DNA of 64,000 nt from a virus (Duplodnaviria > Caudoviricetes). Under the pieces are notes generated by a model. The model saw only the letters and a list, made by a program, of their open reading frames with translations, was not told the origin of the DNA and did not search any database. Shown one piece after another: positions 34,770-50,605 of this stretch; position 1 is the stretch's first letter, and the number at the start of each line of letters is the position of its first letter. The translations under genes were made by a program, and so were the position numbers. Where the stretch lies: positions 96,001-160,000 of the IMG/VR virus record IMGVR_UViG_3300037466_003648; one strand, 5' to 3'.

Positions 34770-35294
34770 ATGGCCACCTCCGATTCTACCGACCCGTCGA
34801 TCTCAGCCAGCTTCATGGCCGGGTGGGTCTACGCGGGTGTCCCCTACACCAAGGACGCGAACCGGACGGCCAACCCGGTGGGCACACCAAACTGGTTCTC
34901 CCGCGGTTCCCTGCACCGTGCCAAGTGGATTCGGCAGGGTCCCTTCGTCGACGTCAATGGGATGTACGAAGTCCCGGAGGACCACGCGTTGGTCTACTGG
35001 GAGATCAAGCAGGGCACCCCGGAGTGGCAGCCCCCGGTCGAGGAACGCATCCCCGCCATCCTGGCGATTCTTCCGATCGACCTGGAGTTTGTCGCAGGCA
35101 ACTGGCCGGGGGCAACCAGCCCACCGCTGTTGTTCCAGTCGGTCGATCCCGACCTTGCACTCATCGCCCCACAGGACGATGTCGCGGTGTGGTTCGCCCT
35201 GAGCGGACCGGCCCACATCGTTGGGCGGTTCCGCGTACCTGACGAGGTGGATCTGGGCTTCGGCCGCAGCAACCTGGGTGGGTGGGGACTCTAG
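34770..35294 (+). CDS. hypothetical protein
   Basis: 174 aa, contiguous with neighbours. Confidence 0.55.
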   Translation: MATSDSTDPSISASFMAGWVYAGVPYTKDANRTANPVGTPNWFSRGSLHRAKWIRQGPFVDVNGMYEVPEDHALVYWEIKQGTPEWQPPVEERIPAILAILPIDLEFVAGNWPGATSPPLLFQSVDPDLALIAPQDDVAVWFALSGPAHIVGRFRVPDEVDLGFGRSNLGGWGL

Positions 35295-35295
35295 C

Positions 35296-35964
35296 ATGAG
35301 TGCCACCAAGGACATCGACCAACTGATCGCCGACATCCGTCTCGCGACTGACTTGGTGGCCGAGAAGTCCTTGGTACGTCGCCTGCGTGGCGGTGCTGGA
35401 ACCCTGGACATCTTGAAAAGCGCGTTGGCACGCCTGGCCGAGATCCGTCAAACGTTCTCGATCCCCAACGACGTAGAGATTCTGGACTGGCTGAAGACAC
35501 AGCTTGCCGATCCACCGGCTATCACTGGTAAGGTGATCACTCCCGAAGTTGCGGAGCGCAGTGCTCAACGGTGGCTGCCTTCACCGGATGGTCCCGAACC
35601 TCCTGTTGTGGTCGAACCAGCCTCATTGGAACGGTTGCGACGTCGTCGTCCCAAACAGTGCGCTCGCTGCCCCAACAGCTTTATCCCGACGGGCTACCAA
35701 CAACCCTTCTGCCCTTCGTGTGTCGCTGCAATTGACATCGAGAACGCAGAGATCCGTCGCCAACAGATCGCGGCCGATCCAGAAGACGACAAACGGTCCG
35801 AGTCCGACACCTGGCCCAGCAGCAAGGTGAAGGGATTCCCTTGTGGCAGCTGCGTCAACGGTAAGAAGAACGACCTGTCCGAGAGCGGCTTCGAGTGCAC
35901 CACGAGCTGCGCCCGTGCGTGCGCCCCATGGGGTCCTGCGTGGAAGTACGAAGCGAAGGCTTGA
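35296..35964 (+). CDS. Cys-rich hypothetical protein
   Basis: CARC...CPSC and CGSC...C...C...C; start reassigned to 35296. Confidence 0.55.
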   Translation: MSATKDIDQLIADIRLATDLVAEKSLVRRLRGGAGTLDILKSALARLAEIRQTFSIPNDVEILDWLKTQLADPPAITGKVITPEVAERSAQRWLPSPDGPEPPVVVEPASLERLRRRRPKQCARCPNSFIPTGYQQPFCPSCVAAIDIENAEIRRQQIAADPEDDKRSESDTWPSSKVKGFPCGSCVNGKKNDLSESGFECTTSCARACAPWGPAWKYEAKA

Positions 35965-35989
35965 CAGGATTGCTTCTTGGTGCGATGAT
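35961..35989 (+). promoter_or_regulatory. promoter A (small RNA)
   Basis: TTGACA-17 nt-GATGAT with extended TG; the -10 box lies in the loop of TGGTGC/GCACCA. Confidence 0.65.
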
Positions 35990-35995
35990 AGCACC

Positions 35996-36078
35996 AGCCT
36001 GAGCTTCGGTTCCGTGTCCCAAACATTCCCGAAGCCTTCGCACGAAGCCCCTGCCCGCACAGGGGCTTCGTGCTGTTG
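35996..36078 (+). ncRNA. candidate ~80-nt small RNA
   Basis: No ORF; hairpin GCTTCGG/CCGAAGC with a 19-nt loop, then a 14-bp hairpin at 36040-36073. Ends are inferred. Confidence 0.5.
36040..36078 (+). terminator. 14-bp hairpin, possible terminator with a weak U-tract
   Basis: GCACGAAGCCCCTG/CAGGGGCTTCGTGC followed by TGTT. Confidence 0.5.
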
Positions 36079-36104
36079 ACACATGGATCGATCCATGGTA
36101 ACTT
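36076..36104 (+). promoter_or_regulatory. promoter B with a perfectly palindromic spacer
   Basis: TTGACA-17 nt-TAACTT with extended TG; the spacer contains the 16-bp palindrome CATGGATCGATCCATG. Confidence 0.7.
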
Positions 36105-36110
36105 ACATAC

Positions 36111-36397
36111 ATCAGGCTCTGTCGGAGTGCGGGACACGGAAGACAACCTGCTGGGAGCGAAGGGGCCGCTAGACGCCTGACGCCCTCGAAGGAAGAACCC
36201 GCGGAGTTCTTCACCGTTGTCCCTACCCTCCAATCGTACCCACGGGTCGAGCGGAGTTCCCGAAGGCTGGCCTTGACGGCCTGTACGACTGGAACGTGGG
36301 GGTAGGGGGACACGGTTACTTCGAGGGAGACTCAGCTAACCACTTCCGCCTGACGGGCGGGCGCGCGAGACGAGCCACACGGCTCGTCTTTTTGTTT
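36111..36397 (+). ncRNA. candidate ~285-nt highly structured RNA or attenuator leader
   Basis: No credible ORF; nested helices CCCTCGAAG/CTTCGAGGG, GAAGAAC/GTTCTTC, ACCGTTGTCCCTACCC/GGGTAGGGGGACACGGT, TCGTAC/GTACGA. Confidence 0.6.
36367..36397 (+). terminator. intrinsic terminator
   Basis: AGACGAGCC-ACAC-GGCTCGTCT followed by TTTTGTTT. Confidence 0.85.
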
Positions 36398-36425
36398 GGG
36401 ACCGCGGGTCCTGGGAGGAGATCCG

Positions 36426-36707
36426 TTGCTAAAACTGTACGCCCTGCTAATGATCGTGGGAGCGATCATCGCCTTGACCGGCTTGCTCTGGGCGATCCCG
36501 GAGTACGGTCAGCTGTACCGCACCTGGTTCGTGCTTTCCTCCACCAAGTCGACCGATGCGGTTTGGTTGACACGGCTCTCCGCCCAAGTGCAGATCCACC
36601 GCCTCAACTGCTTTGCCGAGGCGCTGGGTTCCTTGGCCGGACTCTTCATGATCGTGGGCGCCTTGTTAGGCATCTCGATCGAGCGGTTGCGTTCGGCGCC
36701 GCGTTAG
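36426..36707 (+). CDS. small membrane protein with two TM segments
   Basis: GGAGGAG RBS, TTG start at 36426; two hydrophobic stretches. Confidence 0.65.
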   Translation: MLKLYALLMIVGAIIALTGLLWAIPEYGQLYRTWFVLSSTKSTDAVWLTRLSAQVQIHRLNCFAEALGSLAGLFMIVGALLGISIERLRSAPR

Positions 36708-48625: not shown

Positions 48626-50605
48626 TTACCAGTCGGCTTGGGTCACCGACGTCTTCCGCCCCATGGTCCGAATCGTCGCCCCTGCATTTCTGGGCGCGTT
48701 GTTGATCAACCGTTGATTGCTGCGTGCGGCCATGGCACGACCCTCATCGAAGATGTCGGAGATGACGCCCGCCGCACGCACCTTGCCGACCGTGCGCATC
48801 TTGTCCGAACCCACTTCGAAGCTGCGGTACTTGCGCTCGTCCTGGGCGATCTTGTAGATGACGCAGGCCAGGCAGTCGGACAAGTCCTTCGAGCCGCGGG
48901 GCTTCGGGTGATCGATGCGACGACCGTTCATCAGCTTCAGCTCGATCAACTCCTTGTGCAGCTGGGCAGCGGCGGGCGACACGCTCGGGTCCGGTAGCTG
49001 GATGCGCTCGGCGTAGAGCCAGTCGCGCAAGGTCAGGTAAATGTCGCGCTGGACCTGCTGACTAAAGCTCGACTTCCACTCGCGGGTATTCACGCCCTTC
49101 GAGTACAGGCGTTGGATGATCATGGCACTCTGCCAGTGGTCGAAGGTCATGTCCCGCAGGGTGATGTAGGGAGCCAGCTCCAGGATGATCTCTTCCACGT
49201 TCATGAAGTCCGTGGGGTAGATGTTCTTGCGGCCCTTGTCGAGCGGCTGCCACTTCAGGATGGTGTGCACGTCCGCGTGCACCAACCCCGTGGCTGCGTC
49301 GTAGAAAGGCGAGGCGGCCACGAAACCGAAGCTGTCCTTCTTCAGACCGGGGTCTCCGTGCGCGTAGCTTTGGAAGCCGATCGGAACGCTGATCGCATCG
49401 CGGTCGACGTGGATCTTAATGCCTGCCTTGATCTGCACGCCATCGGGTCCGACCACCTGCGTCTCGATGGCCTCGTAGCCGACCGGCAGACTCATGCGCG
49501 TCGTGACCTTCTGGACCAGCGGCTTCTGGAAGTAGGACTCCTCCGAACCGGGGCGGACGCCTGCGTAGTCGCGCTGCGCCTCGATGCCGCGTGCAGCGAA
49601 CTCTTTGCGCATGAAGGGGTGCTCTTCGCCCAGCTTCGCGAACTCCGGGTTGATGTCCCAGGTGCAGAGGCGGAACGCCAGGATGTTGGCGCCCTCCTCG
49701 GTCTCTGCCATCTCGTACATCGTGTCCGTGATGTCGCCTTCCGCCCAGGCGGAGGAGATGACGATGCGCTTGGAGCCGAACTTCTGGAGGGTGGTGACAC
49801 CCTTGCCGACGTTGGCGTACATCTCCGCGCCCGACGCACCGCCTTGGGCTTCGACACCAAAGCGGTTGCCCTCGTCCATCGCGAAGATCATCAGGGTACG
49901 GCCGACCAGACCCTCGGAACGGCTGTGACCGGCCCAGAGCAGGAGGTTCTTGCTTTCGCAGTAGATCTCCAGCGCGTTGACCTGGATGACGCCGGTGGCC
50001 ATGAGACCCTGGAAGTAGGGGCTGTGCTCGATACGACCCTTGACGGCGGCGAACAGCGTGTCCTTGGACTGCTTCTCGGAGGTTGCCAACACGAGGAAGG
50101 CAATCAGGGATCCCGCCATCAAACCGAACGACGCGGCAGGGTCCTTGAGCTGCAGGAGCTTGTAGAACTCGAAGGTCACCATGATGGAGGTCAGCGAGGT
50201 CTTGGAGCCGCGCATCCCGCACTCCAAACACAGCTCTTGGTACTCCTGGCCTTCGACCCAGGTGGTCTTGTTGTCCAGTGACCACTGCTGGAGGATCTCG
50301 CGCTCGTCCCACGGATCGTCCGGGTGCATGTCGTAACGGGAGCACCAGCTGAAGATCTCTTCCTCGCGCTCGGCGCTCGTCCGGCCCGTGAGGTTGATGC
50401 ACAGGTCGCGCCAGAGCCCCTTCTCCAGCGGCAGGTTGTACAGCGCCTTGAGGATGGCACGCTGGGTCGGCCACAGACGGACGCCCAGGATCTCTGTAGC
50501 GAACTGGACAACGTCCATCGTTGTCTGGTCCTGCTGCATACCTTCTGCCACGATCTCGTGGATGAAGCTCTGTGCCTTGAGCAGTGGCTTGTTGATCTTA
50601 CTCAT
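48626..50605 (-). CDS. terL: terminase large subunit
   Basis: LWPTQRAIL, GMRGSKT (Walker A), AMDEG (Walker B), HGDPGLKKDSFG and KDLSD nuclease motifs. Confidence 0.88.
   Translation of the reverse strand: MSKINKPLLKAQSFIHEIVAEGMQQDQTTMDVVQFATEILGVRLWPTQRAILKALYNLPLEKGLWRDLCINLTGRTSAEREEEIFSWCSRYDMHPDDPWDEREILQQWSLDNKTTWVEGQEYQELCLECGMRGSKTSLTSIMVTFEFYKLLQLKDPAASFGLMAGSLIAFLVLATSEKQSKDTLFAAVKGRIEHSPYFQGLMATGVIQVNALEIYCESKNLLLWAGHSRSEGLVGRTLMIFAMDEGNRFGVEAQGGASGAEMYANVGKGVTTLQKFGSKRIVISSAWAEGDITDTMYEMAETEEGANILAFRLCTWDINPEFAKLGEEHPFMRKEFAARGIEAQRDYAGVRPGSEESYFQKPLVQKVTTRMSLPVGYEAIETQVVGPDGVQIKAGIKIHVDRDAISVPIGFQSYAHGDPGLKKDSFGFVAASPFYDAATGLVHADVHTILKWQPLDKGRKNIYPTDFMNVEEIILELAPYITLRDMTFDHWQSAMIIQRLYSKGVNTREWKSSFSQQVQRDIYLTLRDWLYAERIQLPDPSVSPAAAQLHKELIELKLMNGRRIDHPKPRGSKDLSDCLACVIYKIAQDERKYRSFEVGSDKMRTVGKVRAAGVISDIFDEGRAMAARSNQRLINNAPRNAGATIRTMGRKTSVTQADW

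Follow-up and report, generated by a model that had tools for sequence, protein, structure and literature searches.

What is encoded in the stretch of DNA that separates an orphan gene from a small putative membrane-protein gene in a soil jumbo phage, and does it serve only to regulate the latter? We addressed this question in a sequence of 64,000 nucleotides (nt), hereafter the window, which corresponds to bases 96001-160000 of the IMG/VR virus record IMGVR_UViG_3300037466_003648 (Duplodnaviria; Caudoviricetes). The complete record is 205,180 bp long, possesses direct terminal repeats and presents a GC-content of about 63%. The locus extends from the stop codon of an orphan gene of 222 amino acids (aa) to ORF93, an open reading frame (ORF) of 93 codons starting at position 36426. 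An original prediction, made from the sequence alone, interpreted this locus as the leader of ORF93, in which a small RNA (sRNA) encoded upstream would control a transcription attenuator and gate the expression of a small membrane protein. Several components of this model are found in our analysis, but on balance we favor another reading, in which positions 35965-36425 constitute a self-contained module of two RNAs and not merely the leader of a membrane-protein gene.

Between the stop codon of the 222-aa gene (35964) and the start of ORF93 (36426), the GC-content remains within 0.58-0.64 across all three codon phases, unlike the flanking genes, where it differs by 0.3-0.4 between phases. The lack of a codon-phase signal indicates that this region is non-coding. 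On the plus strand, where all the features of the locus are located, we identified in order a promoter (P1), a hairpin sRNA, a second promoter (P2), about 255 nt of GC-rich sequence, a terminator, a 6-bp hairpin, a Shine-Dalgarno sequence and the TTG-started ORF of 93 codons. P1 (35961-35989) is composed of TTGACA, a 17-nt spacer and GATGAT with a TG upstream of the latter, and its -35 hexamer contains the stop codon of the 222-aa gene. The sRNA predicted behind it (sRNA A; about 80 nt; 35996-36075, with its start taken from promoter geometry) presents two hairpins. Hairpin 1 (36003-36035) has a 7-bp stem and a 19-nt loop (36010-36028), and hairpin 2 (36040-36073) is a GC-rich helix of 14 bp followed by a poor U-tract, which makes read-through into the next RNA gene likely. 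P2 (36076-36104; TTGACA, 17 nt, TAACTT) abuts hairpin 2 and precedes a predicted large structured RNA (large RNA A; about 285 nt; 36111-36397), which is multibranched and closed by an intrinsic terminator. Host-type (sigma-70-like) promoters would drive both predicted RNAs, whose production we infer from these sequences.

Searching the phage genome against itself revealed a second copy of the sRNA and large RNA module at genome positions 83206-83690 (L002:1095-1580), at the head of a tRNA array. This paralog (copy B, the window copy being copy A) presents the same order of promoter, hairpin sRNA, promoter and large RNA, and the alignment of the two modules is 73% identical. Within the large RNA, conservation covers ~65 nt at the 5' end and ~75 nt at the 3' end, and the center has diverged past alignment. 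The two copies share exact blocks of 19, 12, 10 and 9 nt, which are absent elsewhere in the genome, save for the 9-mer that is found twice more. In copy B, the last conserved block is not followed by a terminator hairpin, and no membrane gene is present. A third promoter is found there within ~12 nt, followed by a 33-codon ORF with a Shine-Dalgarno sequence, a weak hairpin and a tRNA-Met gene, and the tRNA genes that lie behind form a dense run (12 in a 3-kb locus). Because the large RNA of copy B lacks a terminator, its 3' end must arise otherwise, either by processing or by read-through into the tRNA precursor. A possible third copy at genome position 78.5 kb was rejected since it represents coding DNA, and the two 222-aa proteins encoded upstream of the modules were found not to be related.

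The comparison of the two copies informs on the pairing between the sRNA and the large RNA. The original prediction proposed that the sRNA is complementary to 36112-36118 and to the adjacent loop, and both complementarities are borne out: AGCCTGA at 35996-36002 matches TCAGGCT at 36112-36118, and TTCCGTGTCCC (36010-36020) matches GGGACACGGAA (36131-36141). The latter match, in which 11 nt of the sRNA loop are perfectly complementary to the loop and the 3' strand of the 5' hairpin of the large RNA, defines the main candidate target of the sRNA and was equalled in 13 of 1000 shuffles. The 7-nt match at the 5' ends does not exceed the length that the longest match of the shuffles reaches on average (7.4 nt). 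In copy B, the cognate match lies at the homologous position and comprises 12 and 10 contiguous nt separated by one bulge (22 nt), a length reached in 1 of 1000 shuffles. There, a G-to-C change in the sRNA is mirrored by a C-to-G change in the target. Cross pairs, in which the sRNA of one copy is confronted with the target of the other, present no match, and the target words of the sRNA occur in the genome only within the modules. For copy A, the sRNA gene is located upstream of its target and on the same strand, with matches of 7, 11, 9 and 10 nt. The 5' ends of copy B present a 5-nt match (GCCAA/TTGGC), which gives slight but insufficient support for the 7-nt contact. Whole-molecule duplex energies were uninformative at this GC-content. 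An apparent cognate antisense match that is kept through sequence change is the strongest evidence in this locus, and it is very likely, judging from the sequences, that the antisense pairing is functional.

We further analyzed the folding of the two RNAs. Hairpin 1 of the sRNA has 5 of 11 pairs altered on both sides between the copies, and 16 of the 19 positions of its loop are identical. The large RNA of the window starts with a leader, followed by the 5' hairpin (36120-36145) and by two conserved blocks (36158-36166 and 36173-36177). A three-way junction follows, which is formed by the helices Pa (36183-36191/36319-36327), Pb (36192-36212) and Pc (36213-36228/36300-36316), with a distal domain that includes the conserved positions 36243-36250. 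The 3' part contains an invariant 19-mer (36299-36317), a conserved block (36331-36340), a hairpin (36346-36360), another conserved block (36357-36368) and the terminator. Three pairs of the 5' hairpin are changed on both sides between the copies and its GGA internal loops are kept. Pb, a 7-bp hairpin occupying the same junction position in both copies, has four of its seven pairs changed on both sides, and Pc is in both copies a long helix between a central pyrimidine-rich strand and the invariant 19-mer. Both Pb and Pc were recovered by independent minimum free energy (MFE) folds of each copy; the Pa helix is tentative in these models. Stems that covary, loops and blocks that remain invariant, and sRNAs that match their own partner together suggest that selection has acted on the pairing as well as on how the large RNA folds.

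Two additional observations concern the 19-mer. It is identical in both large RNAs (window 36299-36317; L002:1501-1519) although its partner strand in Pc differs. Within it also lies the same GGGACACGG word (a 9-nt match) that the loop of the window sRNA targets in the 5' hairpin, and the sRNA could in principle also invade Pc.

In the reading that we favor, the first sigma-70-like promoter would produce an sRNA of ~80 nt made of hairpins, and the second, directly behind it, would produce an RNA of ~285 nt ending at the terminator. The sRNA would act as the dedicated antisense partner of the large RNA. Its 19-nt loop would nucleate on the loop and the 3' strand of the 5' hairpin, starting with a kissing contact and proceeding to a duplex of 11 bp (22 bp in the paralog). 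This pairing should open the 5' hairpin and may alter the folding or the stability of the large RNA. Because two diverged and mutually orthogonal copies of the module have been kept, the large RNA is likely functional in its own right and would belong to a class that has not been described; it is probably an effector and not only a leader. ORF93 would then represent a separate accessory gene carried by the same 1.4-kb insert. Its transcripts might arise only by read-through of the terminator, or might be initiated by a polymerase of the phage itself at a type of promoter that is invisible to a sigma-70 scan. As an add-on specific to the window copy, the sRNA may tune ORF93 through a helix between the 5' and 3' parts of the large RNA that competes with the terminator, or through a 10-nt match in the leader of ORF93. 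We lean slightly against the idea that the sRNA influences ORF93 by any route.

ORF93 (36426-36707) is predicted to encode an orphan protein of 93 aa with two hydrophobic helices. It was originally described as having a strong ribosome-binding site and no visible promoter of its own. Indeed, the Shine-Dalgarno sequence GGGAGGAG (36413-36420) lies 5 nt before the TTG start, and no sigma-70-like promoter was found between the terminator and this start. A recurring motif upstream of ORF93 that might constitute a promoter for a phage polymerase was also searched, and none was found. The GC-content at third codon positions (GC3) of ORF93 is 0.83 (0.79-0.92 for reference genes), only its own frame and the mirror frame give a positive codon score, and its codon-phase periodicity is strong. 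Together with the Shine-Dalgarno sequence, these properties make it probable that ORF93 is a genuine gene. At its 3' end, the stop codon shares 4 nt (36704-36707) with that of the convergent gene encoding a virion protein of 3972 aa. We identified no homologue of ORF93 among 5.8 billion proteins and no Pfam or PHROG family, and a search of the Atlas yielded generic helical hairpins only. The role in toxicity, exclusion or lysis that had been suggested for this protein is unsupported beyond its two hydrophobic helices. From the layout of the locus, we infer that ORF93 is fed by read-through.

This layout is compatible with the attenuator of the original prediction. In this model, positions 36115-36123 of the leader pair with the 5' arm of the terminator when the sRNA is absent and transcription reads through, and the binding of the sRNA to 36112-36118 and to the loop frees the terminator. 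The intrinsic terminator (36367-36397) consists of a 10-bp stem (36367-36390) with a 4-nt ACAC loop followed by TTTTGTTT; its hairpin has a predicted energy of -17.0 kcal/mol with pair probabilities of 0.82-1.0, and it lies 29 nt ahead of the start of ORF93. The competing helix exists as well. Positions 36115-36123 (GGCTCTGTC) can form eight Watson-Crick pairs with 36369-36376 (GACGAGCC), which are included in the 5' arm, with T36120 bulged, and this closing helix is the MFE structure of the nascent RNA up to position 36380. In the full-length RNA, however, the terminator fold wins, with pair probabilities close to 1 and an advantage of 7.4 kcal/mol. As a control, the 253 nt located upstream were shuffled. 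In the shuffles, a gap of 14.2 ± 3.1 kcal/mol separated the terminator fold from the best fold lacking the terminator, and 3% of them were as low as the native sequence. This unusually small gap suggests that the terminator has an unusually good competitor. On the other hand, the terminator arm was sequestered over at least 8 of its 10 nt in 25% of the shuffled nascent folds, and its sequestration is by itself of little significance. Using constrained folding, we found that blocking the 7-nt site (36112-36118) raised the gap to 13-15 kcal/mol, whereas blocking the strong 11-nt site left it essentially unchanged (6.4 against 7.4 kcal/mol). The attenuator would therefore work on paper only via its weakest contact, a 7-nt match of the length expected by chance that also relies on two transcription starts set by promoter geometry. 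Antisense-RNA transcription attenuation has clear precedents in the plasmids pT181, pIP501 and pAMbeta1 and in RnaG/icsA of Shigella (PMC2879508). But the paralog keeps the GGCTCTG of the proposed antiterminator 5' strand (36115-36123) along with the fold, and it possesses neither the terminator nor a downstream membrane gene. As the conserved unit of copy B ends before the terminator, gating a membrane gene cannot be the conserved job of the module, and a conserved structured core of ~255 nt far exceeds the needs of such a switch. The sRNA and its target, the strong terminator, the competing helix, a coding-like ORF93 apparently reached only by read-through and a 10-nt match between the sRNA loop and the leader of ORF93 support part of the original prediction, whereas the paralog and the 11-nt site, which leaves the balance unchanged, speak against it. 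We consider this attenuator unlikely to be the explanation of the locus.

Post-transcriptional control of ORF93, resembling a type I toxin-antitoxin system or an sRNA acting on an mRNA, offers a different way of connecting the two. Here, the loop segment 36016-36025 of the sRNA would pair with 36393-36402 in read-through transcripts, open the hairpin next to the Shine-Dalgarno sequence and alter translation or stability. This 10-nt perfect match falls exactly between the terminator stem and the Shine-Dalgarno sequence, overlapping the end of the U-tract together with the 5' strand of the 6-bp hairpin (36398-36412), which directly precedes the Shine-Dalgarno sequence. It was equalled in 3 of 5000 shuffles of the leader and in 21 of 1000 when the whole sRNA was compared with the whole read-through RNA, and the product of ORF93 is indeed small and hydrophobic. 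The match was nevertheless noticed post hoc and is one of six perfect inverted repeats of 10 nt in a region of 1.9 kb; the same 10-mer is also found in the 222-aa gene, the paralog presents no counterpart, and the site ends 11 nt before the Shine-Dalgarno sequence. Moreover, typical type I toxins are smaller than a two-helix protein of 93 aa, and ORF93 has no homologue or family match. We regard this route as quite unlikely. The large RNA could alternatively represent a processive antitermination element acting in cis in the manner of HK022 put, which would allow transcription to pass the terminator or the structured tRNA array and would be switched off by the sRNA. Each copy does immediately follow a near-consensus promoter and is itself followed by terminator-like or highly structured RNA, an arrangement that resembles putL and putR. 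A put RNA, however, is only about one quarter of the size of the large RNA, no match to Rfam was found, and the further promoter located right behind the paralog makes read-through unnecessary there. We regard this possibility as very improbable. The same holds for the view that nothing is functional in this locus and that it represents a duplicated GC-rich spacer with promoter-like and hairpin-rich sequences next to a spurious ORF. Homologues are found nowhere and spurious ORFs are common at 63% GC. Yet two copies that are only 73% identical keep exact blocks, compensatory changes in stems and antisense matches specific to their cognate partner, and the locus possesses two near-consensus promoters, a textbook terminator, and an ORF93 with gene-like GC3 and a Shine-Dalgarno sequence.

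Several points nonetheless weigh against the module of two RNAs. The starts of the RNAs (~35996 and ~36111) and the ends of the transcripts were deduced from the geometry of promoters and terminator. The fold is supported by two sequences from one phage population, no orthologue was found in collections, and covariation statistics are consequently thin. Pa is found in the MFE fold of copy A only; copy B could form 8 bp at this place, including two G-U pairs, but its MFE fold chooses another partner. With MFE z-scores of -1.6 and -1.9 for the two copies, the large RNAs stand out only modestly. Finally, the small energy gap of the terminator and the 10-nt leader match hint that the coupling to ORF93 may be more than incidental. 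The leader match, although post hoc and without counterpart in copy B, would be a second independent hint that the sRNA touches the expression of ORF93. In addition, the four DNA sequencing runs that contain the locus yielded identical sequences, with no population variation.

If the module of two RNAs is real, its core of ~255 nt might represent a new class of phage structured RNA, such as a ribozyme, a protein scaffold or a decoy, that is set by an antisense sRNA and exists as two orthogonal pairs, one wired to the tRNA array and the other to a membrane gene via a terminator switch. We find this extended proposal doubtful. We searched for known families using Rfam 15: the window locus gave no match at E up to 10, and thus does not correspond to any structured RNA family described there, and the only matches of the paralog (E of 5.9 and 8.6, at its sRNA) were chance-level matches to unrelated sRNAs. 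ARAGORN detected no tRNA or tmRNA in the window. Domains of the TROVE/Ro, RtcB, RNase III, reverse transcriptase and TnpB types were not found in the 205-kb genome, and the lack of these cognate protein genes argues against a Y RNA, a retron RNA (msr-msd) or an omega RNA. A leader peptide inside the large RNA was also rejected, as it would lack a start codon and its frame is not kept between the copies, and so was a CsrA/Rsm sponge, because the paralog is not enriched in GGA.

The locus was likewise not recovered outside this phage. Profiles of both RNAs were searched with nhmmer in four relatives selected based on TerL (G001 with 54% identity, G002 with 39% and complete at 194 kb, G003 and G004), and nothing was found. 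The closest relative of all (80% identity in TerL) is known solely from a contig of 3.4 kb. In IMG/VR, the sole sequence recovered with the invariant 19-mer and with a pattern of the 5' domain was a 20.7-kb fragment of this phage, nearly identical to it. In JGI metagenomes, a two-anchor pattern of the 3' part gave 0 matches, and an 18-mer gave 7 matches, all unrelated and mostly in coding DNA. The genomes of GTDB yielded 0 matches, and 1 chance match within a repeat-protein gene. Against GenBank phages, blastn returned no match for the locus and only tRNA matches for the paralog region. No relatives were found for ORF93, the 222-aa protein, the C-terminus of the giant protein or the protein encoded upstream of the paralog.

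The nearest long relative (G001) helps to delimit the unit. It keeps the order of the HU-like gene, the 104-aa gene, the HTH gene and the homologue of the 174-aa gene, and this homologue converges directly on the giant gene with overlapping stop codons (L014:9800-10560). This genome lacks the block 35295-36703, made up of the 222-aa gene, ORF93 and the two RNAs between them, and the block thus represents an accessory insert or has been lost in the relative.

We also considered the promoters at the scale of the genome. Near-consensus promoters similar to P1 and P2 were found at about 14 intergenic sites genome-wide, mostly preceding RNA genes. These sequences suggest that the RNA genes of the phage may be transcribed by the host polymerase. 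The family can be written as (C)TTGACA, 17-18 nt and a TAGGAT- or TAGGGT-like hexamer, with sites in the window at 1636, 31201, 33262, 35961 and 36076, and it clusters at RNA genes near genome positions 80-87 kb and at a few operon heads. The spacer of P2 is filled by a perfect palindrome of 16 bp (36082-36097; CATGGATC/GATCCATG), which resembles an operator. A related GATCGATC core is found after the sRNA hairpin of the paralog, but there it lies upstream of the -35 hexamer, and the 12-bp core of the palindrome has one further occurrence at genome position 31314.

Regarding the genomic surroundings, genes on the plus strand extend to ~36.7 kb and include those of a helicase, primase, ribonucleotide reductase, PD-(D/E)XK nuclease, HU-like protein and HTH protein. 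Beyond ~36.7 kb, a block of genes on the minus strand begins with a terminase-like gene and the gene of the 3972-aa virion protein, which places the locus at a convergent junction. The locus does not lie at an extreme of the cumulative GC-skew, and an origin function is not indicated. No terminator-like site was found on the minus strand in 35000-36700, and late transcripts may cross ORF93 and both RNA genes in antisense. The orphan protein of 222 aa (35296-35961) contains several cysteine pairs of the CxxC type in its C-terminal half and has no family or homologue; its gene presents a GC3 of 0.68 and a weaker bias in GC across codon positions than its neighbors. Further away, the terminase-like protein encoded on the minus strand at 48626-50602 has many relatives of 900-1600 aa, to which the match is broken into 2-4 stretches, a pattern that would fit inserted elements, possibly inteins, in these homologues.

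Compared with known systems, the locus shares traits with several and is a member of none of the antisense attenuators, the c4 RNAs or the kissing-loop plasmid RNAs. Like pT181, pIP501, pAMbeta1 and RnaG, it would combine an sRNA that kisses the hairpin loops of a nascent leader, a terminator before an ORF, and an upstream segment that can pair with the 5' arm of this terminator. However, the regulator of pT181 type is a fully complementary countertranscript of the opposite strand, whereas here it is a tandem gene on the same strand with short matches. The conserved RNA of 255 nt also exists without a terminator, the elements of the switch are not kept in the paralog, which lacks the terminator and its arm, and the strong pairing site leaves the competing helix untouched in folding models.

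The c4 antisense RNA of the immI operon of phages P1 and P7 provides another comparison, as cited in PMC8546580 (Citron and Schuster 1992, PMC312442). There too, a phage sRNA (~77-85 nt) is located just upstream of its target and in the same orientation, and it pairs through short loop matches. The specificities of the c4 RNAs of P1 and P7 differ by matched changes on both partners, and specificity between the two related modules of our phage seems to be achieved in the same way. In contrast, c4 blocks the ribosome-binding region of icd/ant, whereas the main target here would be the 5' hairpin of a non-coding RNA. There is no similarity to c4 in sequence or in Rfam, and each RNA of the locus has its own promoter.

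Plasmid replication is controlled by kissing loops in the pairs RNA I/RNA II of ColE1 and CopA/CopT of R1 (both named in PMC2879508). As in these pairs, a hairpin-loop sRNA would bind the 5' hairpin of a longer RNA whose later folding decides the outcome, and the large RNA with its G-rich invariant block adds to the likeness. These pairs are nonetheless cis-antisense RNAs that control replication, and our locus presents no indication of such a function. Type I toxin-antitoxin systems with an sRNA of the trans type, such as tisB/istR-1, also place a small hydrophobic ORF downstream of a long structured untranslated RNA and have an sRNA encoded nearby, which briefly matches the leader. ORF93, however, is larger and has two helices, the best-supported target of the sRNA is a non-coding RNA, and the paralog has no such ORF.

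A structured RNA targeted by an antisense sRNA dedicated to it is of a known kind. What appears new is the tandem layout on the same strand, the occurrence within a single jumbo phage of two orthogonal copies, and the core of 255 nt, which falls into no class. To our knowledge, control of one RNA by another through antisense pairing has been described for plasmid replication and for the immunity of P1, but not as a duplicated and co-evolving module in a jumbo phage of the lytic type. Should the narrower claim of the attenuator hold, antisense attenuation would no longer be limited to countertranscripts but would include an sRNA of the trans type, encoded on the same strand, that causes intrinsic termination. 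Provided that the RNAs are made, both copies together would constitute a natural pair of orthogonal RNA-RNA switches, and the phage, which is rich in RNA genes and carries a large tRNA array, would possess a new structured RNA with an invariant core of 19 nt.

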